A stretch of 64,000 nt of DNA from Planctomycetota bacterium. GTDB lineage: Bacteria; Planctomycetota; GCA-002687715; CAIWVZ01. Below, one piece after another: positions 6,201 through 13,773 of this stretch. The notes below the pieces were generated by a model. That model had not been told where the DNA came from and did no database searches. It saw nothing but the letters and a program-made list of their open reading frames with translations. Location of the stretch: assembly GCA_044222185.1 (NCBI GenBank), contig JBGANV010000001.1:192001-256000 (forward strand), written 5' to 3'. Each line of letters opens with the position of its first letter. Position 1 is the stretch's first letter. A program made the translations under genes and the position numbers.

Positions 6201-6979
6201 CGATCCTGGCGACGGCGCAACACCGTGGCGGTCGCCATGACGTCGCGCGGCGCCTGCTCGACGACGCCATCGCTCGCGCCTCGAACCGAGGCGACGTCCT
6301 GCGCGCCACGCGCGCGCGGGTCGCGCTCGGTCGCGTGCTGTTGACCGTCGGGGCGCTCGACGCAGCGGAGACGCTGCTGCGCTCCGTCGCCCAGTCGCCC
6401 GGGTGCGAGGGTGATCGGGCCACTGCCGCCGGTGCGTGGCTCGGGCTGCACGAGATCGCCCGAGAGCGTCTGCACGACGGGAACGAGGAGCTGGATCGGG
6501 CGGTGGCCCTGGCTTCGGGACACGTGGCGCGCGTCGACGCCGAGGTGGCGCTGGCAGCCGCCAGGCGCGCCGTGGAGACGCGCCGAACGGGCGACGCCCG
6601 GAAACACGTCGCGGCCGGCCTGCGGGCCGCGCGCGCACTCCGTGATACCGAGCTGTGCATCCGAGCGCGCTGGATCGCAGGACTCGTGCGCACGGAAGCG
6701 GACCGGATCGTTTCATTCAACGCGGCCGTTCGGGGAGCCGAACGGTGCGGCATGGCCGAACTCGGGTGGCGTGTCCACAGAGATCGTGGTGCAGCCCTCC
6801 TCGAACTCGGGCGCGGCGAGGCCGCCCAGCTTGGGCTTCGGGACGGGATGCGGATGCTCCGTGCCATCCACGACGCGTTGCCCGCCTCGCAACGGCCGGC
6901 GTACCTGTCGAGCCCCGGGCGGCAGGCGTTGCGTGCCCTCTTCCGCCAATCGTTGTCGACGGGGGTCGGGGTGCGATGA
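3287..6979 (+). CDS. Ser/Thr kinase-like (probable pseudokinase) + STAND/AAA ATPase + TPR-like protein
   Basis: Kinase fold motifs VTLK, REF, HGSIRPSN, DFD, YAAPE, SDLYSLG; Walker A GPRGIGKS; Walker B LILLDD; long Ala/Leu/Arg-rich helical repeats. Confidence 0.85.
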   Translation: MTRQPGSGRFQVVRPLWTGSHATAELARDAFRGDRLVTLKTIAPGRLPPRVMARLQREFTIRRRLKHAGIAELLDFEFDDAGACRIVREYVDGTDFVTWCEGRDVSAIADVTVQVLQALAYLHDCGLVHGSIRPSNVVVVGGDRPYARLLDFDPVGDVVSGRDPVDRLHYAAPEVLRAQVPDGRSDLYSLGVLLLYGLQGRLPFEDQNQPAAVVAWHLSPSAERVPKGCRLARTIERLLEVAPERRFSEAPEVVRAIGTEVGRRFRSRVIRESEQLLVTGRFVGRERELRKIEEVARRVFNGSGGRFFLVAGPRGIGKSRLLDEARVLAHISGIRVIAARCGREGCPPLGVLRDVLRQLVTHMGVEHPVVEQHRAVLTTVLPEIFEAVSARSTDADLGAADAWLRVKNGITDFLAGAADVRPLLILLDDLQAMDEPSLAVLRWLSNTFRGGPFMIVASLRDDPVPAGTQPANALLVDEEHEVLRLRPLQPSEIEMMLSSVLALSGTLRELTDLIMRLTGGVPLFIEELIRSLIDGDLTSVLGDATPVRLAGDGDANRVAARALALAVARMRRLGDDAQRLLGMLSAFEGPVPLSELQVVAALEPVAEAAALQSLDAAEVVSIEPRAQGSTISWRSDLFREAARSLVSPEVITGVHDQVVDHLSARNDGSVDHVARVAFHALRGSRRETALKVCIAAARHGLLLHAGGSARPWLERARQMAHETGDQEARREALNLLSEACERAGDLDGARAAYEELRELPAADPDTGVNALLRIGDIESSSGRQQAADRTFSTAGQEAERIGDARLISRVERAAARQLMRRELYRDARDRLDRALSLLGEFATPAELGGILGEIGLADWHLGDLGSARLHQRRSLQCALRARDWVLVTTAHLHLGLVDWKSGRTKAALGRLTRAEALSRRLGHYPLRAAALQNRGAIELELGRLAQAVQTLTQSLAVRRRLDDDPGVVETLAILATAQHRGGRHDVARRLLDDAIARASNRGDVLRATRARVALGRVLLTVGALDAAETLLRSVAQSPGCEGDRATAAGAWLGLHEIARERLHDGNEELDRAVALASGHVARVDAEVALAAARRAVETRRTGDARKHVAAGLRAARALRDTELCIRARWIAGLVRTEADRIVSFNAAVRGAERCGMAELGWRVHRDRGAALLELGRGEAAQLGLRDGMRMLRAIHDALPASQRPAYLSSPGRQALRALFRQSLSTGVGVR

Positions 6980-9177
6980 ACGACTTCTTCCGCGACCTCG
7001 AGATGTTCGAGAACGCCGAGCCGCAGGCGGAGAAGCCACGCTCCATGTCGGCGGAGCACCTGAGCCTGCTGGCCGATTTCGCGCGCGAGCTTTCGGCGGT
7101 GGTCGACGTGGACGACCTGGCGCGAGTCGTCCTGCGGCGCGTCCTCTCGCTCACCGGCGCCGATCGGGCCCTGATCTACCTGAGCCGAGGCCAGGAACGG
7201 TGCCGGCCCTTGTTGGGCCTGGACCGCGACCAGCAACGCCTCATCGGTGAGCGCAGCCGGGTGGGACAGGAGATCGTGGAGGCCGTCGTGGAGACCGGCG
7301 AGCCGGTCCTCTCCAATACGGTGATGCGTCACGAAACGGCCGCGGGGCCGGACGACTCGATCGCGCTCGGCGTGGGAACCTGCATCTGTGTCCCGCTCGA
7401 GTCCTACCGCGGTCGCATCGGGGCGCTCTACCTCGACAGCCCGGTCGGTTCGCACGAACTCGACGAGGAGGATCTGATCGTCGCGCGCCTCGTCGCGGTC
7501 CAGGCGTCGCAGGCATTGGAACTGCTGCGATTCGAGACGCAGAAGCGCGAGGCTGAACGCGTCCGTCTCGAGAACGACTACCTTCGCCAGCTCTCCAAGA
7601 AGACCGCGGACGAAGCGCGTGTCATCGAGAACCTGAACAACGAGTTGAAAGGGCGCACGGAGAAGCTGACGCAGACGTCTGCCTTCCTCTCCAGCGTCCT
7701 CGAGAGCAGCACCGAGCACGCGATCATCGCGACGGATCGCGACGGGCTCATCAGTACGTTCAACGCCGGAGCCGTTCGCGTCTACGGTCACTCGCCCAGC
7801 GAAGTCGTCGGGCGCGCGCGGCTCGACGTTCTCTTCCGCGGGACGGACCGCGAACGGGGCGTGCCGCGGGAGATCATCAATGCTGCGGCTGGACCGACCG
7901 GGCGTGCCGAGGGCGAGGCACGACGGGTTCGGAAGGATGGTCGAGAGATCGCCGTGCACGCGGCGACGACGGCGATACGCGACTCGGACGGGCACCTCAC
8001 CGGCTACGTGGACGTGTCGCGCGACATCACCCGTGAAGTGGAGATGCGCCGGCAGATGCTCATGTCCGAGAAGATGGCCGCGCTCGGTACGCTCGCCGCC
8101 GGCGTCTCGCACGAGTTCAACAACCTGCTGACGGGGATCATCGGCTTCCTCGAACACGCCGAACTCGCCCCAGACGCCGAAAGCCGCGCTCGGGCGATCT
8201 CGATCGCGCTGAATGGCGCGCAACGCGCGGCGTCGCTCACGCGGCAACTCCAGTCGGTTGCGCGCCCCGCCGTCACGAAACAGGTCGCGACGCCGCTCTC
8301 CGATCTTGCGAACGAGGCCGTCGCCCTCGTGGAGAAGAGCTTCGCCTCGGAGGGCGTCGAGTTACTGACGGAGCACAAGCCCGCGGGCATGGCGGTCCTC
8401 GATCGCTCTCGGTTGTTCCAGGTGTTGATCAACCTCCTGACGAACGCGCGTCACGCCGTGGAGAAGTCGGCGGAGAAGAGGGTCGTCGTCACCACGAGCC
8501 AGGAGGGCAGCTGGTGCGTGCTCGCGGTGCGGGATTCCGGCTGCGGAATGACGCCCGAGGTCCAACGCCGGATCTTCGAGCCGTTCTTCACGACGAAGGG
8601 CGCGCTGGGCGGCGACGTCCACGACGGCAAGATCCACGGCACGGGCCTGGGGCTCGCCATTTCGCACGGAATCGTGGCCGAGCATGGCGGGCGGATCGAG
8701 GTCGTGAGCGAGGTTGGGGTCGGCTCCACGTTCCGCGTTCTCTTGCCGATGGCGCCCGCTGGCGTGGAGGCCAACGCGCCGTCCGCCGGCTCCGCGCACA
8801 GGGGTGGCCACGCCGTCAAGAAACTCGACGTGCTCGTGGTGGATGACGAGGCGTCGATTCGCGATCTGCTGAAAGCCGTCCTCGGCCTGCGCGGGCACGC
8901 CGTGACATGCGCCGGCGACGGGGAGTCCGGTCTGAAGGCTGCCCTGGCCGCGAAGTTCGACGTGATCATCGCGGACTTCCAGATGCCCAAGCTCACGGGC
9001 GGGAAGTTCTTCGCGAAGCTCGCCGAGTGCGCCAAGGGACCTCTGCCACGACGGATCCTCATCACGGGGCTCCCGCCGTCCGAGCTGGACCTCCCGGCGG
9101 GCCTGGACGTGGTCCTCGAGAAGCCCTACAGCGTCCAGGACATGATCCGCGCCGTGGAGCAGCCGGGACCGGCGTGA
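6976..9177 (+). CDS. Hybrid sensor histidine kinase (GAF-PAS-HisKA-HATPase-REC)
   Basis: ATG at 6976 overlaps upstream stop (ATGA); GAF (CICVPL..IGALYLD); PAS (AIIATDRDG..FN); H-box SHEFNN; NLLTNA; DSGCG; FFTTK; GTGLGL; REC VVDDE..IADFQMP. Confidence 0.9.
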   Translation: MNDFFRDLEMFENAEPQAEKPRSMSAEHLSLLADFARELSAVVDVDDLARVVLRRVLSLTGADRALIYLSRGQERCRPLLGLDRDQQRLIGERSRVGQEIVEAVVETGEPVLSNTVMRHETAAGPDDSIALGVGTCICVPLESYRGRIGALYLDSPVGSHELDEEDLIVARLVAVQASQALELLRFETQKREAERVRLENDYLRQLSKKTADEARVIENLNNELKGRTEKLTQTSAFLSSVLESSTEHAIIATDRDGLISTFNAGAVRVYGHSPSEVVGRARLDVLFRGTDRERGVPREIINAAAGPTGRAEGEARRVRKDGREIAVHAATTAIRDSDGHLTGYVDVSRDITREVEMRRQMLMSEKMAALGTLAAGVSHEFNNLLTGIIGFLEHAELAPDAESRARAISIALNGAQRAASLTRQLQSVARPAVTKQVATPLSDLANEAVALVEKSFASEGVELLTEHKPAGMAVLDRSRLFQVLINLLTNARHAVEKSAEKRVVVTTSQEGSWCVLAVRDSGCGMTPEVQRRIFEPFFTTKGALGGDVHDGKIHGTGLGLAISHGIVAEHGGRIEVVSEVGVGSTFRVLLPMAPAGVEANAPSAGSAHRGGHAVKKLDVLVVDDEASIRDLLKAVLGLRGHAVTCAGDGESGLKAALAAKFDVIIADFQMPKLTGGKFFAKLAECAKGPLPRRILITGLPPSELDLPAGLDVVLEKPYSVQDMIRAVEQPGPA

Positions 9178-9220: not shown

Positions 9221-11005
9221 TCACCGCAGTTCGAGTTCGAGAGTCTGCTTCAGCTCCTGCGGTGGCAGGCAGGACCGCGCGTCGCAGACGATGGCGGTCA
9301 CGGTCACGTCGATCGCCTGCTTGCCCGCGACGGCCTCCGGGCGCCTGCGAAAGTCCTGGCGGAACGTCACGGTCCCCGAGAATTGCGCCTCGTCACCTTC
9401 CGCGGTCTTGTGGGTCGTCGTGGGGGCGGGGACGACGAGCTTGCCGGCGGCCAGGAGGTCTCGGCCCGGTCCGATCACGACCTCCATCGGGTACCCCGCC
9501 GTCGTCGACGGCGAGTATCCGTGCCAGCCCTCGTCGAACGTGACGTCGATGCGGACCGTGACCACCCCCTTGGCCGCGTCGGTCGTCGCCCGGGTGCGCA
9601 CGTCGACGTGTTTTCCGTGGGTCGTCGATTCGGTCGATGTGGCCTTTGCCGGGGCGGGATCGGCTCCGTGGCCCGTGGAGGGCTGCGTGTTCACGAACCA
9701 CCGGTAGCCACCGAAGTCGCTGAAGTACAGGCGCGAGCGGTTGGCATCGAACCAGGTTCGCAGGGCGGCGGCGCCGTTCGAGGGTGCCTCGGGCGCGTAG
9801 CGCGCAAGGAGCCGTTGGGCGAGTGCATCGCTCGGGTCCTTCTCCAAACGCGCAACGATCTGCGCGAAGAACTCCGGTTTGCGGTTGGAGCCACCGAGCG
9901 CCACGACGTCCTCGTCGACGACGTGGACGTTGCGGTCGCCCGAGCCCTTCGTCGCATGCACGGCCTCCATGTGATCGAGGAACCACCGCTTCAGATTCGG
10001 GTAACTCCCCGAGGCGTGCTCGACGGTCGCGGCGCCGAAGTACCTCGTCGCGGACTTGGCGTCGAACGTCGCGACGGCGGTCTCGCTACCGAGGATCGCC
10101 GGAGTCTTGTCGTTCATCTGGGAGGCGACCCACAGCTCCACGATCACCCACTCGCGCGGACTCGCGACCTTCTTCTGGATCGGGTGCTGCCCGTCGAATT
10201 GCCTCATCCAGCAGATGGCGTTCGTCAGCACGTCCTTCGCCGATTCGGTCATGATCTGGGGTGAGCACGCGAATCCCCAAAGGAAGTAGTTGGCCTGACG
10301 ACCGAGGGCGAGGGAGTCGGGGCCCTTGGAGTTGATCCCGCTGGAAATCCACTCGCAGTCCGGCGAGTCCTCGAAGCCGAATCCGTCCGAGACCATTCCC
10401 ACGTTGTCCAGGGGGCGTCGCGAGTCGGATCCCTTGGAGTCCGTCGCGGGTCTGGGCGGCTGCTCGAAGACCTTCCAGGCACGGAGGGATGGGGGCACTG
10501 CGCGCGGCGCGTAGTGGGAGTAGTGCTCGGGGACCGAGAGGTCCTCGAGCGTGATGGCGGCCTTGAGAGGTGTGTTGAAGATCGGGTGGTCGAGGCGCAT
10601 CCCGTGCGCCATCTCATCGAGGCACAGTCAAAGCCAGCCGATCTTGCTCGACTTGTCTGCGGCCTTTCCCGCGGATGCGATCAGCACGGTCGGGCGTGAC
10701 CAGGACTCCGGGAAGCTGATGCTCTTGGTGCAGCCACTCATCTTCAGCCGGTTGCCAGGCGCCTCTTCCACGGTGCCGTCCGCGACGATGACGTCGAAGC
10801 CGGCCCCATTCGATTTCAGGAGTTCCTCCGGGGTCGTCGTGCCCACCTTCTCGAAGCGGCCTCGGAGGAAGTCCACGTAGGCCTTCTCGCGTGGCGTCCC
10901 GGGCTCTCCGGCATAGAGCACGGAAACCGGGTGGCGCGGCGGAGGTGCGGGGGAATCCTGCGGCGCGAGCGCCAGCAGGGGGAGGAGGGAGAGAGTGGCG
11001 AGCAC
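9221..11005 (-). CDS. Candidate exported selenoprotein (UxC motif) with C-terminal DsbD N-terminal-like domain; 594 aa if TGA at 10628-10630 is read as Sec
   Basis: ORFs 10628-11005 and 9221-10612 are in the same frame, separated by TGA + CTG TGC CTC GAT GAG; signal peptide only in the upstream part; C-terminal GWHGYS and CDARSCLPP motifs; hairpin just after the TGA. Confidence 0.7.
10592..10630 (-). promoter_or_regulatory. Putative bacterial SECIS element
   Basis: mRNA UGA, then 23 nt to the apical loop: GA-U(bulge)-GGCGCA-[CGGGA]-UGCGCC-UC; G at second loop position. Confidence 0.6.
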
Positions 11006-11080: not shown

Positions 11081-11218
11081 TCAGCCCTTCGGGGTCGTCT
11101 GGCGGCCGATTCGGCGGTGGCGCTTGATCACCTTCTTTCCGCCTTTCGTCTTCATGCGGGTCCGGAAGCCGACCTTCTTGAGCCACTTCTGCTTGCTGCG
11201 ACGGGTGTTGATTTTCAT
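11081..11218 (-). CDS. rpmH: 50S ribosomal protein L34 (bL34)
   Basis: 45-aa basic peptide MKINTRRSKQKWLKKVGFRTRMKTKGGKKVIKRHRRIGR with the L34 GFRxRMxTxxG signature. Confidence 0.85.
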   Translation of the reverse strand: MKINTRRSKQKWLKKVGFRTRMKTKGGKKVIKRHRRIGRQTTPKG

Positions 11219-11286
11219 CGGTTTGCTCGGGTCGGGTGGGGGGATTGGCGGGCGATGGCCGCGATCTCCGACCCGAAAGAGGCGGC

Positions 11287-11316
11287 TTAATAGCAGCGAC
11301 CGAACGACAGGGTCAA
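11287..11316 (-). promoter_or_regulatory. Putative sigma70 promoter of rpmH
   Basis: Minus strand TTGACC-18 nt-TATTAA with TGn extended -10, in an otherwise very GC-rich spacer. Confidence 0.5.
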
Positions 11317-11547
11317 GCTTCGAGCCGCCCTCTTCCCGCGCTTCGGGGGGTGGCGGGGGGGGCGCGACTCGCGCGCGGCGGCAGGGTGCGCGGCGGCTCG
11401 CTCTCGCGCGACGCCGTCGTCCGTGCCCGCGGCGCCGCGGCGAAACGCCGGGAAACATGGCTTGACCTCGGGGTGGGGGCGGCGGGTAGGGTCTTGTTAC
11501 CCCGCCTTCCGACCTGCGTCCTGCATCGCGGAGGGCTCGACCCAGTG

Positions 11548-12117
11548 ATGGAGTGGCAAACATCCGAAACCGGTGATCCGCTCGTGGAGTCGCGGCAGGT
11601 TCACCAGCCGTCCGCCGAGGAAGCCCTCGTCGCACTGGCACCCGAGGTCGTCAACTTCCTCGAACATCACGTGGGCGATCCGGTCCTCGCGGCCGACATC
11701 GCCCAGGACACGCTCGCCCAGGCCTTTCAACTGCTTGGGACGCTGCGCGACATCCGGGCCCTGCGGGCGTGGGTGTTCCGCATCGCCGTCAACCGGTTCA
11801 ACGACCATCTGCGGCGCGTTCGGCGCGCACCTGCGGTCGAGGAACTCCAGGACGTCGTGGAGCGCCCCGATCACGACCGCCCCGAGCACTCGGTCATGCG
11901 GCGCGAATTGGACGACGTGATCCGGAGCTCCGTCGCACAACTCCCGGAGCGCCAACGGACGGTGTTCCTCCTCCACGACGCGAAGGGCATGTCCCACCCG
12001 GAGATTGCGGCTCTTCTCAACATCACTACCGATGCGGTGAAGACGAGCCTGTTCCACGCGCGCGAGAAGCTGCGCGAGCGACTGAACCGTTACCTCGGCC
12101 GACGCGGAAACGACTGA
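11548..12117 (+). CDS. ECF RNA polymerase sigma-70 factor
   Basis: Region 2 AADIAQDT..WVFRIAVN..DHLRR; region 4 LPERQRTVFLL..GMSHPEIA..VKTSLFHAREKL; start chosen at ATG 11548. Confidence 0.9.
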   Translation: MEWQTSETGDPLVESRQVHQPSAEEALVALAPEVVNFLEHHVGDPVLAADIAQDTLAQAFQLLGTLRDIRALRAWVFRIAVNRFNDHLRRVRRAPAVEELQDVVERPDHDRPEHSVMRRELDDVIRSSVAQLPERQRTVFLLHDAKGMSHPEIAALLNITTDAVKTSLFHAREKLRERLNRYLGRRGND

Positions 12118-12126
12118 GCGTCAACG

Positions 12127-13773
12127 ATGAAGGAACCCTGCCCACCGAAGACCCTCTTGCACGAGTACGTCGACGCTGCCCTCGACGGCCCGCGCCGCAG
12201 CGACTTCGAGGCGCACCTCATTCGATGCTCCGAGTGCCGCGACGCAGTTCGGCTCCTCCGCCGCATCTTCACCTTCGCGCGCGCCGTCGAGCACAGGCCT
12301 GTCCTCGACGTCTCGGCCATCGTCGCACGGGCCCGGGAGCAGGCCGCGCCGGAGATCGTGCGGCAGGCCGTCCCCGCGCCTTCGCGCTTCGGGCTCCTGC
12401 GGAGGGTCGCGCCCGTGTTGGCCGTCGCATCGTTGCTCATGGTCGTCGGCGTTGCGTCCTGGACTGCCGGCGAACATTCGATCCGTGACGGAGCTCCTGA
12501 GACGTCGCCTGCGCCCGTCGAGGCCCGACCCGTAGCCTGGACGTGGCCACCGTCCACGCTTCCGCTGGCCGAGCAGGTCCAGCGCGTCTTCGACGGCTCC
12601 GGTGCGCGCCAGGTCGCGATCCAACGCGCCGAGGAACTGCTTCGCCGGCGTCCATTCTCCGACCCGGAGCTCGTGAGCGGCTTGATGATCCTGGCTCAGC
12701 TCGGCGGGCCGGAGGCCCAGCCGTCGGTCACCCGGATCGTTCGCGCCCGCGAACTCACGCCAGAACCCTCCGCGAGCGCACTGGCGGCCACGCGGCACCC
12801 GCGGGTCGCCGCAACCATCGCCGAGCTCCTGCGCGAATCGCCGAGCGGGCTGCGGCAGCAACTCCTGGCGTCGGTGCCGGGCGAGGATGCGACGCGCTTC
12901 CTGCTCGACGAGTGGATCCGCGTGGGCCTCATCGACGGCCTGGAGCCGACGTTCCTCGAGCGAGAAGGCCTGATCACGCTGGCACGCCGCCGGGCCGTGG
13001 TCGCCTCGCGCGAAACCCGGATCCGGCTCTGGACTCTCGTGGGGCGGCTCGGCGGAGACGATGCCGTCGGCGCCCTCGAGAACGTCTGGCGGGAAGGCGG
13101 GACTCCGTCGGAGGTGATCGAGAGCCTCGCGGTGATCGGTTCGACCAAGGCCTTCGAGGCGCTCGCGCGGCGGCTGCCGAAGGTCGACGACATCGAAGAA
13201 TGGCCGCTGGATCCGGAGGTCGAGCTGATCGAGGGCGCCCTGCGCCAGCACGCGACCGTCGCCGGGCCGTGGCTCGCGCACGTCATGCGCGGGCTCGACA
13301 GCGTGTCGGACCGTCGCCGTCTGTTGATCGCCGCCGGCCTCACCCGCAGCCCGCGGGTGCTTCCAGAACTGCGGCGCGCGCTCGGCCGGTCTCAAGACCG
13401 TCGTGCCGCGATCCTGGCTCTCGCCCTCGCGGAGGACGGGGACAGCGTCCCGCACCTCGAGGCTCTCACGATGATGGAGGATCTGGGTACCCGCCGCCGT
13501 GCCGTCCGCGCGCTCGGCGCGATCGGGACCGACGACGCCGTGAAGGCCCTGGCGGGCCTGCTGCCGAAGGATCGAGAGCGGCGTCTCGTCGTCGACCTCC
13601 TGGCGAAGAGCCAGAAACCTGCCGCGACGATCGGATTGATCGACGGCCTGCGCTTCGAAGACACCCGGGAGCGCGCCGTTGCCGCCCTCAAGCTGCGAGC
13701 CGGGCCCGACGCGCCCGCGACCGCGAGTCCGGCGGCCTGGTACGCCTATTTCCGCCGATCGCCGGGGGAATGA
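12127..13773 (+). CDS. Zinc-binding anti-sigma factor (zf-HC2) with TM helix and HEAT repeats
   Basis: HLIRCSEC (HxxxCxxC); TM helix VAPVLAVASLLMVVGVASW; HEAT-like repeats (RRAVRALGAIG); directly after the ECF sigma. Confidence 0.85.
   Translation: MKEPCPPKTLLHEYVDAALDGPRRSDFEAHLIRCSECRDAVRLLRRIFTFARAVEHRPVLDVSAIVARAREQAAPEIVRQAVPAPSRFGLLRRVAPVLAVASLLMVVGVASWTAGEHSIRDGAPETSPAPVEARPVAWTWPPSTLPLAEQVQRVFDGSGARQVAIQRAEELLRRRPFSDPELVSGLMILAQLGGPEAQPSVTRIVRARELTPEPSASALAATRHPRVAATIAELLRESPSGLRQQLLASVPGEDATRFLLDEWIRVGLIDGLEPTFLEREGLITLARRRAVVASRETRIRLWTLVGRLGGDDAVGALENVWREGGTPSEVIESLAVIGSTKAFEALARRLPKVDDIEEWPLDPEVELIEGALRQHATVAGPWLAHVMRGLDSVSDRRRLLIAAGLTRSPRVLPELRRALGRSQDRRAAILALALAEDGDSVPHLEALTMMEDLGTRRRAVRALGAIGTDDAVKALAGLLPKDRERRLVVDLLAKSQKPAATIGLIDGLRFEDTRERAVAALKLRAGPDAPATASPAAWYAYFRRSPGE

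Follow-up and report, generated by a model that had tools for sequence, protein, structure and literature searches.

An in-frame UGA that very probably encodes selenocysteine in a planctomycetal protein with a DsbD-alpha-like domain

Within the 64,000-nucleotide stretch of planctomycetal DNA analyzed here (hereafter the window), we found a single gene of 594 codons in which the in-frame TGA at codon 126 very probably encodes selenocysteine (Sec). The gene is recorded as two open reading frames, and TGA-free homologues carry cysteine at the aligned position. The explanation that accounts for all parts of the locus, namely one Sec gene whose decoding is directed by a hairpin and whose exported product has its Sec centre served by its own DsbD-alpha-like domain, appears likely as a whole.

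A single gene across an in-frame TGA

The gene occupies positions 9221..11005 of the minus strand (594 codons and a TGA stop), with a GTG start codon at 11003-11005 and the stop codon at 9221-9223. The list of open reading frames splits the locus into one of 125 aa (10628..11005, minus strand) and one of 463 aa (9221..10612, minus strand), which an earlier note on this DNA had placed in a shared frame. Translation of the minus strand from 11005 to 9224 in this single frame yielded 594 residues interrupted by exactly one TGA, codon 126 at 10628..10630, in the claimed context K-I-G-W-L-[TGA]-L-C-L-D-E-M; the split reading frames are thus one gene. The read-through product contains the proposed Sec126-x-Cys128 motif (Cys128 at 10622-10624) as well as a C-terminal cysteine pair, which we located at C574 and C579. 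As anticipated, gene callers miss this product, and the corresponding database protein (P0002) is a truncated piece of 459 aa starting from M136. The TGA is not an assembly artefact, as the same codon is present in contigs from two other studies, and five of the seven variant sites among these contigs are synonymous and lie on both sides of the TGA. A look through the listed sequencing runs turned up no RNA data set.

Upstream of the GTG start, an RBS-like AAAGGGG was found by eye at a distance of 5 nt. The N-terminus (about aa 1-17; 10955..11005, minus strand) is signal-like and comprises, again judged by eye, a stretch of 13 hydrophobic residues followed by A-P-Q-D, with no basic residue ahead of the hydrophobic stretch. 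It aligns with the signal-like N-termini of homologues, and the periplasm is the most likely destination of the product.

Evidence for decoding of UGA as selenocysteine

In order to assess the residue at the site, homologues covering both halves were compared, as the earlier note had proposed; they carry either Cys or TGA at position 126. Column 126 of the alignment is Cys in 14/14 full-length homologues, so that the motif WYCLCL, which the earlier note had given for Bacteroidota, is real; the consensus in Bacteroidota/Opitutaceae reads DWYCLCLD. Among the best 150 representatives, 82 span the site, with Cys in 78 of them, while 58 start just past codon 126 and one stops at codon 125. These late starts and the early end are typical of gene calls interrupted at a Sec codon and indicate that the whole family is wrongly recorded in public data.

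Within a sample of 401 Planctomycetota genomes, an in-frame TGA was present in all 38 matches spanning residue 126, which derive from 31 genomes. At the level of loci, 28/29 showed a TGA within a UxC motif at or beside the site (23 at the exact column and five more with the UxC shifted by 2-5 alignment residues), and a scan of species genomes returned 58 Cys, 24 TGA and one Ser in 83 matches. Since the TGA is kept in dozens of relatives at only 30-57% protein identity, the site lies far beyond chance. The locus therefore shows what characterizes a selenoprotein gene, an in-frame UGA flanked on either side by conserved coding sequence.

The machinery for Sec insertion, for which a genome search had been suggested, is present with selA, selB, selD and tRNA-Sec. 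The tRNA-Sec gene (74.7 bits, anticodon TCA) adjoins selA (487 bits), selB scored 330 bits, and selD (371 bits) itself contains an in-frame TGA at its known GGU-ACK site. selA is encoded in each of the 31 genomes that have the gene in its TGA form, compared to 285/401 genomes above the cut-off in the whole sample, which points to Planctomycetota as a phylum with common Sec use.

Bacterial SECIS elements are stem-loops located soon after the UGA with a G in the apical loop, and the hairpin predicted in the window (10592..10613, minus strand) shows both features. It consists of a 6-bp stem (GGCGCA/UGCGCC) with the loop CGGGA and two more pairs beneath a bulged U, and the stem begins 17 nt past the last base of the TGA (20 nt past the first). 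Hairpins of the Sec forms share the loop CGGGN, start about 17-20 nt past the TGA and contain compensatory changes. Allowing for a bulge of 0-2 nt, at least seven of eight stem pairs were formed in 39/44 Sec forms versus 0/59 Cys forms, and this contrast holds among the 24 Cys forms with a GC content of at least 0.60, which average 4.4 pairs. Counted in strict register, pairing occurs in 81.1% of cells versus 62.7% after shuffling (0/500 shuffles reach 81.1%), the covariation score is 0.416 versus 0.142 in shuffled data, and slid-register controls pair at only 24-49%. The conserved peptide A-H-G-M/L-R yields part of the stem for free.

With six of eight register pairs, the hairpin in the window itself ranks among the weaker examples. 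When folded without constraints, the 73 nt 3' of the UGA did no better than shuffles (z -0.5), so that the hairpin is visible only in the register-aware comparison. An Rfam scan of positions 10400-10800 gave three matches at chance-level E-values and no SECIS family. A covariance model (R1) trained on 43 Sec-form sequences assigned 59.6 bits to the window sequence and failed to separate the two classes (13.7-44.9 bits for Sec forms held out of training, as much as 35.8 bits for Cys forms), because the coding sequence that both share drives the model. Based on position, covariation and restriction to the TGA forms, the hairpin may direct decoding of the UGA by SelB and tRNA-Sec.

These data also bear on two readings without Sec. 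Near-cognate read-through or another way of decoding the TGA, or termination with the downstream part made from Met136, would agree with gene callers yielding exactly such a downstream protein (P0002) and with the same mRNA also ending in TGA. We regard this as very improbable, given that homologues without the TGA have Cys, and not Trp or Arg, aligned with it, that the hairpin after the codon is specific to TGA forms and that selA accompanies all carriers; moreover, the downstream piece alone would have no signal-like N-terminus and would miss the four N-terminal strands of the domain to which it belongs. A nonsense mutation or assembly error, leaving a pseudogene or two unrelated genes, finds nothing in its favour except the split reading frames. 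Retention of the TGA in nearly all phylum loci and in the 24 further scan matches, its recurrence in contigs from two other studies, the synonymous variation on either side and the alignment of both halves to single proteins elsewhere, which confirms that they belong together as originally claimed, reduce its probability to close to nil, and the pseudogene or two-gene reading was dropped.

Domain architecture and a predicted internal redox relay

A structure model (m86f7119d5727, pLDDT 89.2) places both residues of the U126-x-C128 motif on the same side of a beta strand within a predicted alpha/beta domain (aa 25-272; 10190..10933, minus strand). This domain shares its fold with ThuA-like and class I glutamine-amidotransferase (GATase) proteins, the fold matches being 4jqs_A (Z 12.0, rmsd 3.5, 185 aligned residues), 1t0b_A (Z 12.0, rmsd 3.4, 183 aligned) and 4gud_B (Z 11.8, rmsd 3.0, 170 aligned); a Foldseek search was also run on the domain, and 3rht is among its structural relatives. 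However, sequence identity to the structural matches is only 8-15%, and no ThuA or GATase family model in Pfam matched at E <= 1. Amidotransferases use a catalytic triad of Cys-His-Glu, with the cysteine at the nucleophile elbow. In the model, strand 4 is followed by a helix and then by the strand that bears the U/C-x-C, and the place of the amidotransferase nucleophile is presumably about 15 residues before this motif. The residues after strand 4, assigned by secondary structure alone, read S-A-G and include no Cys. A mostly helical domain follows (aa 286-445; 9671..10150, minus strand) with a conserved D364 and an R-Y-T motif; it gave no fold match, and the listed matches span model residues 4-251.

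The C-terminus (aa 473-588; 9242..9589, minus strand) had been described as a DsbD N-terminal-like domain, and this assignment held: Pfam DsbD_N (PF11412) matched with an E-value of 5.6e-8 and 33.3 bits (cut-off 25), including the CDARSCLPP stretch with Cys574 (9284-9286) and Cys579 (9269-9271). Foldseek recovered 1l6p, 3pfu and 1jpe at E-values of about 1e-6 (1l6p: 1.4e-6), and in a profile alignment both family cysteines land on two cysteines of the 1l6p chain. A single-sequence PDB search with the C-terminal 139 residues returned nothing relevant; only profiles reach DsbD. The fold of these 116 residues is thus common to DsbD-alpha (PF11412, 1l6p) and the N-terminal domain of ScsB (6c29). 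In contrast to the full three-domain DsbD reductase, the protein contains neither the transmembrane domain (DsbD_TM) nor the C-terminal thioredoxin-like gamma domain, PF11412 being the only such domain in 594 residues; here, the domain is the last one of a soluble protein, and docking onto a partner domain within the same polypeptide is predicted for it. A gene of the DsbD transmembrane family (DsbD_TM) is located elsewhere in the genome.

This docking was predicted for a natural Cys homologue (P0014, 28% identity), which we split on the basis of our alignment into two chains, the N-module and the DsbD-like domain, and it represents a prediction on the homologue rather than a measurement. The complex scored 0.69, a mark attained by 58/80 solved complexes and 2/110 mismatched pairs, while the best control reached 0.02. 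The runs had at least 52% of contacts in common, with a partner pLDDT of at least 82. In the predicted interface, residues 150-155 (D-W-Y-C-L-C) face residues 625-631, and Cys153, the equivalent of Sec, touches Cys629. The proposal of two redox centres thereby gains in silico support from their predicted contact in the Cys homologue. Both motifs were retained in 108 of the 109 distinct sequences that combine the two domains; one had lost both and none had lost only one. Most Planctomycetota relatives are without the DsbD-like domain, so that a relay would account for the family only in part.

On balance, we favour an internal redox relay between the Sec126 site and the DsbD-type cysteine pair, albeit with considerable reserve. 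SelB and tRNA-Sec would decode UGA 126 as Sec, guided by the mRNA hairpin 17 nt downstream, and the exported protein would present Sec126 and Cys128 side by side on a beta strand as a selenol/thiol redox centre. Its own DsbD-alpha-like domain would fold back onto the U-x-C strand, allowing the Cys574/Cys579 pair to exchange electrons with this centre, and the pair in turn would be served by the periplasmic thioredoxin-like/DsbD system of the cell. Export, the chemistry of the selenosulfide and the direction in which electrons flow are our inferences.

Alternatively, Sec may be real but U126 and C128, perhaps together with His140, could bind a soft metal or chalcogen, with the DsbD-like domain keeping the site reduced. 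Compared with CxxC, a UxC whose two residues share one side of a beta strand is a rarer arrangement in redox pairs. All 15 sequences of alignment A1 have His140, as do at least 90% of those in A2/A4, and ScsB and CrdA, whose entry titles link them to copper, are among the structural neighbours found for the C-terminal domain. Furthermore, one of the two UxC entries in a recent table of prokaryotic selenoproteins (PMC13188914) is a Cu/Zn efflux transporter. However, no metal-binding family model matches the protein, and Asp130 and His134 vary across the family in the homologue alignments and the scan. Thiol exchange fits both the thioredoxin-like neighbours described below and the prediction that the Cys in place of Sec touches a Cys of the DsbD type, though these observations would be compatible with a metal site as well. 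Overall, we consider metal or chalcogen binding unlikely.

Family distribution and relevance

Cys homologues of Bacteroidota adjoin thioredoxin-like genes of the TlpA/AhpC-TSA type in 29 loci, and those of gut Bacteroidota adjoin SusC/SusD as well as thioredoxin-like genes. No conserved neighbour gene was found within flanks of 1.5-3 kb among the Planctomycetota Sec loci. A protein atlas queried with P0014 returned only clusters titled ‘hypothetical’ or ‘DsbD N-terminal domain-containing’. NCBIfam gave no families at E <= 1 and Pfam PF11412 alone; in line with the earlier note, the protein falls outside known selenoprotein families, as no Pfam or NCBIfam selenoprotein model fits.

A 2026 review lists 119 families of prokaryotic selenoproteins (Table 1, PMC13188914). 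As far as its entries carry Pfam or NCBIfam identifiers, none is hit by the protein, and the family described here is absent from this table, as are PF11412, the motif W-L-U-L-C-L and the domain order. The table contains exported thiol:disulfide proteins, two UxC entries, TsoB (rhodanese/DsbD fusion-like) and a single entry of the amidotransferase type whose motif is GxUxG, and the main text makes no mention of Planctomycetota. The listed selenoproteins follow the same pattern as the gene in the window: an in-frame UGA, a downstream hairpin, Cys homologues and a Cys-paired motif. We found no paper on the family in a literature search that stopped short of the supplements behind this table and of table S9 of PMC4807772, which lists selenoprotein candidates of two Planctomycetes.

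Somewhat short of an even chance, we tentatively propose an unlisted, Planctomycetota-wide selenoprotein family, in which Sec resides on a ThuA/amidotransferase-like scaffold and a DsbD-alpha domain within the one polypeptide recycles it, while the Cys version serves SusC/SusD-type uptake loci of Bacteroidota. If true, this would represent a periplasmic selenoenzyme wired directly into the DsbD-type reducing pathway with no thioredoxin fold at Sec. The gene, which standard gene callers split in two, would extend the prokaryotic selenoproteome by a family whose fold is unusual and whose centre is a UxC. The contact predicted to join the Sec site to the DsbD-type cysteine pair offers a concrete and testable electron path, and the Cys homologues of gut Bacteroidota may provide a tractable route to the substrate.

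Reading frame and selenocysteine machinery

Two minus-strand ORFs, 10628..11005 (125 aa) and 9221..10612 (463 aa), lie in the same frame according to the ORF list. Read-through from 11005 to 9224 yields 594 residues; its sole TGA is codon 126 (10628-10630 in the window), flanked as K-I-G-W-L-U-L-C-L-D-E-M; the terminal stop of the 594-codon gene (11005..9221) is TGA, too. An earlier note had described split ORFs sharing one frame with a TGA within W-L-U-L-C-L, and had claimed a hidden exported selenoprotein. Based on the ORF list and translation, the description is accurate, and the selenoprotein inference proved right in its essentials: the finding is real.

The TGA was confirmed outside its own assembly, being unchanged in contigs from two sequencing runs of other studies. 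The contig of run X2 (1033 nt) spans 10309-11005 with three differences, none of them at 10628-10630, and that of run X8 (253 nt) spans 10584-10836 without any difference. As these contigs carry the site unchanged, an assembly error is ruled out. Of the seven variant sites, five are silent changes at third codon positions, two on the 5' side of the TGA (codons 33 and 75) and three beyond it (166, 278 and 453), and the other two alter residues of the C-terminal DsbD-like domain (G512E, R577Q).

The genome of the window (7.08 Mb, 16 contigs, 93.8% complete) was checked for the selenocysteine (Sec) machinery, and all four components are present: tRNA-Sec (74.7 bits, anticodon TCA), selA directly upstream of it (487 bits), selB (330 bits) and selD (371 bits, one in-frame TGA within the match). 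The TGA of selD (contig C14, 427704-428624) is located within G-G-U-A-C-K, the position known to hold Sec or Cys in SelD proteins, and about 27 nt behind it lies a GC-rich hairpin. The SelD of this genome is thus a selenoprotein too, and the organism therefore already makes at least one. Across the phylum, selA was detected at E <= 1e-40 in all 31 genomes with a TGA form of the family, and 285 members of the 401-genome Planctomycetota sample score above its curated cut-off; since related genomes are not independent, this co-occurrence serves as a consistency check and not as a statistical test. Sec use looks common in Planctomycetota, a name that does not occur in the main text of a 2026 review (PMC13188914).

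Conservation of the site and the downstream hairpin

A word-indexed search returned 30 relatives, all source-named ones belonging to Bacteroidota. Aligned to the read-through protein, column 126 was Cys in 14 of 14 aligned relatives, within D-W-Y/F/L/H-C-L/E-C-L-D, which bears out the WYCLCL given for Bacteroidota in the earlier note. When 1.84 billion representatives were searched exhaustively, 862 relatives emerged at E <= 1e-3 (174 at E <= 1e-30), and the best 150 of these were compared with the query at the site. Codon 126 is spanned by 82 of these 150 (78 Cys, two Ser, one Arg, one Val). A further 58 start a few residues past codon 126, P0143 (68% identical) terminates exactly at residue 125, and nine are other fragments. 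Gene calls that pile up in this way, starting or ending at a single codon, are the effect expected of a Sec codon on gene callers.

A sample of 401 genomes of the window's phylum was read through at the DNA level. Among the matches listed, 38 span residue 126, from 31 genomes with the window's own included, and all 38 carry an in-frame TGA; the remaining matches are mostly DsbD_N-only, i.e. other proteins. Among 29 fetched loci, the TGA falls exactly at column 126 in 23 and is shifted by 2-5 residues in the alignment, with the same UxC motif, in five; a single locus (L040) lacks it. The nearest relative, a Planctomycetota MAG (56-57% identity), likewise has TGA. A species scan, with one genome per species, gave 80 loci and 83 alignments (58 Cys, 24 TGA, one Ser), counts biased towards Cys forms because the peptide patterns used for searching contained Cys. 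TGA forms came from Planctomycetota or unassigned titles, and Cys forms from Bacteroidota, Opitutaceae, five Planctomycetota loci and four other loci with record titles naming Bacillota (L071, L073, L098) or lacking a taxon (L112). A tree built quickly with FastTree from 96 N-terminal modules (N-modules; 53 Cys, 41 Sec, two unlabelled), which has no reliable root, requires at least three Sec/Cys changes. It places Bacteroidota, Opitutaceae and these four other loci in a single Cys clade of 49, and two small Cys clades nested inside Planctomycetota Sec clades. Two loci, L052 (about 2270 and 3703) and L056 (about 1768 and 3785), hold two family paralogues in tandem, one of G-G-S-G-U-T-C type and one of W-L-U-L-C type, each with its own in-frame TGA and hairpin.

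Downstream of the TGA, 43 distinct Sec-form sequences align without gaps, and columns 19-26 pair with 32-39 (column 1 being the U of UGA) around a loop that is CGGGN in 35 and CGGUG in seven of 44 sequences. Pairing cells reach 81.1% compared to 62.7% after shuffling (0/500 shuffles attain the observed value), the covariation score is 0.416 versus 0.142, and pairing falls to 24-49% when the partner is slid by 1-3 columns. Both sides change in five of the eight stem pairs, and in two subgroups a bulge of one or two nucleotides preserves the lower stem. Part of the pairing comes at no cost from the conserved peptide A-H-G-M/L-R, whose codons the stem overlaps; Cys forms with similar peptides are therefore the fair control. 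Allowing bulges of 0-2 nt, at least seven of eight pairs form in 39/44 Sec forms (mean 7.3), whereas none of 59 Cys forms reaches this number (mean 4.1; 4.4 in the 24 with GC >= 0.60). Mean folding energies over nt 13-48 are -11.1 kcal/mol for Sec and -6.3 kcal/mol for Cys forms. The window's own hairpin (10592-10613, minus strand) stands at the weak end with six of eight register pairs: a 6-bp stem GGCGCA/UGCGCC, a CGGGA loop and two further pairs under a bulged U. Neither a plain fold behind the UGA (z -0.5) nor the Rfam scan supported a hairpin, and a covariance model did not tell the two forms apart, with Cys forms scoring up to 35.8 bits versus 13.7-44.9 bits for held-out Sec forms. One Planctomycetota Cys form inside a Sec clade (L057) still forms a stable hairpin (-18.3 kcal/mol) near the SECIS position, perhaps left over from a change of Sec to Cys in the recent past.

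Domains and proposed coupling of the two putative redox centres

The only Pfam match is PF11412 (DsbD_N) at aa 473-588 (33.3 bits, cut-off 25, E 5.6e-8), in agreement with the DsbD-N-like C-terminus claimed earlier; the NCBIfam scan of the 594-aa protein gave no match at E <= 1. The full-length AlphaFold model has a mean pLDDT of 85.8, and that of aa 22-445 a pLDDT of 89.2 and a pTM of 0.91. The C-terminal domain resembles the DsbD-alpha structures 1l6p, 3pfu and 1jpe (E about 1e-6) and ScsB 6c29, and in a profile alignment the two Cys of 1l6p coincide with the family's pair, here C574 and C579. Residues 25-272 adopt a ThuA-like/class I amidotransferase-like fold in the predicted model (4jqs_A, Z 12.0, rmsd 3.5, 185 aligned; 1t0b_A, Z 12.0, rmsd 3.4, 183 aligned; HisH 4gud_B, Z 11.8, rmsd 3.0, 170 aligned; the GATase1-like protein 3rht_A of Planctomyces limnophilus, Z 10.9). 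Foldseek concurs (E about 6e-5), while no ThuA or class I amidotransferase model matched in the Pfam scan. The model places U126 and C128 on a beta strand (126-129) after the helix following the fourth strand and thus probably not at the amidotransferase nucleophile position. The mostly helical aa 286-445 gave no separate fold match. The N-terminus is hydrophobic, homologues start with typical signal-like sequences, and several from Bacteroidota have a lipoprotein-like Cys behind a hydrophobic stretch.

Contact between the two centres was modelled for P0014, a natural Cys homologue (28% identical), pairing its N-module (22-500) with its DsbD-like domain (518-642), both given alignments of database proteins. 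The median score came to 0.69, against 0.02 for the best of three controls, and this mark was reached by 58/80 solved complexes and 2/110 mismatched pairs; the runs had at least 52% of contacts in common and partner pLDDT of at least 82, and one of the three scored just 0.27. The confident predicted interface joins residues 150-155 (D-W-Y-C-L-C) to 625-631, which contain the second Cys of the DsbD-like pair, and would bring Cys153, the equivalent of Sec126, into contact with Cys629. We know of no similar complex, and recall of a solved structure is therefore an unlikely cause of this result.

Both motifs are kept in 108 of 109 distinct two-domain sequences, and in none is only one lost. In the exception, P0034 (742 aa, 38% identical), Ser and Thr stand where U/C126 and C128 would be, and the Cys pair of its DsbD-like domain is gone together with the CxC; as a single event, this co-loss is weak evidence for coupling. 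Most Planctomycetota members have no DsbD-like domain.

In Bacteroidota, the gene adjoins thioredoxin-like TlpA/AhpC-TSA genes with DUF4369 (29 loci), SusD-like genes (37 loci) and TonB-dependent SusC-type receptors with an STN/FecR_C extension (27 loci); ECF sigma and FecR-type anti-sigma genes also occur nearby. This neighbourhood, like the joint retention of both motifs, fits a coupled pair of centres. Cys homologues of L068-L128 sit in a recurrent SusC/SusD cassette with DUF4369/thioredoxin-like proteins and FecR/ECF regulators, for which we know of no assigned function. No conserved neighbour was found among Planctomycetota loci. An rpmH-like short ORF (11082-11219, minus strand) lies 76 nt upstream of the window gene; a sub-threshold L34 match (E 1.7e-4, 21.9 bits, cut-off 25) falls on the longer ORF 11081-11641, and the 46-aa ORF on its own has no Pfam match. 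A divergent ECF sigma factor with a zf-HC2/HEAT-repeat anti-sigma candidate (11236-13773, plus strand) and a convergent GAF-PAS hybrid histidine kinase (6655-9177, plus strand) are further neighbours. ECF sigma/anti-sigma pairs flank the window gene and Bacteroidota homologues alike, possibly by coincidence. The genome's one DsbD transmembrane-family gene lies elsewhere.

Proposed mechanism and novelty

Beside the observed gene structure, conservation, hairpin, machinery and folds, we infer export, redox chemistry, a direction of electron flow and partner proteins. The hairpin would assist SelB in decoding UGA126 as Sec, and the protein would be exported. Sec126/Cys128 would alternate between selenol/thiol and selenosulfide while acting on a periplasmic substrate; the C-terminal domain would then swing onto the site and reset it by thiol exchange via C579/C574, which in turn may exchange with periplasmic thioredoxin-like proteins supplied by a DsbD-family membrane protein. 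The main rival, in which the U126/C128 site binds a metal or chalcogen species, appears rather unlikely to us.

Among the 119 prokaryotic selenoprotein families that the 2026 review lists with domain identifiers, none has PF11412, W-L-U-L-C-L or the architecture of the 594-aa protein (PMC13188914). The comparison by domain scan extended to the NF/TIGR identifiers of this list, through the NCBIfam scan without matches, and to its PF identifiers, through the Pfam scan. The nearest listed families are exported thiol:disulfide proteins, two UxC families (one thioredoxin-like, one a Cu/Zn efflux transporter), a rhodanese/DsbD fusion-like family and an amidotransferase-type family with GxUxG (PMC13188914). 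The literature searches run for this analysis found no paper on the family. From its absence in the table, domain scans and these searches, we therefore assign the 594-aa protein to an apparently new selenoprotein family within a kind of system already known. The novelty is threefold: the family itself, the fold it brings to selenoproteins, and a DsbD-type partner built into the chain.
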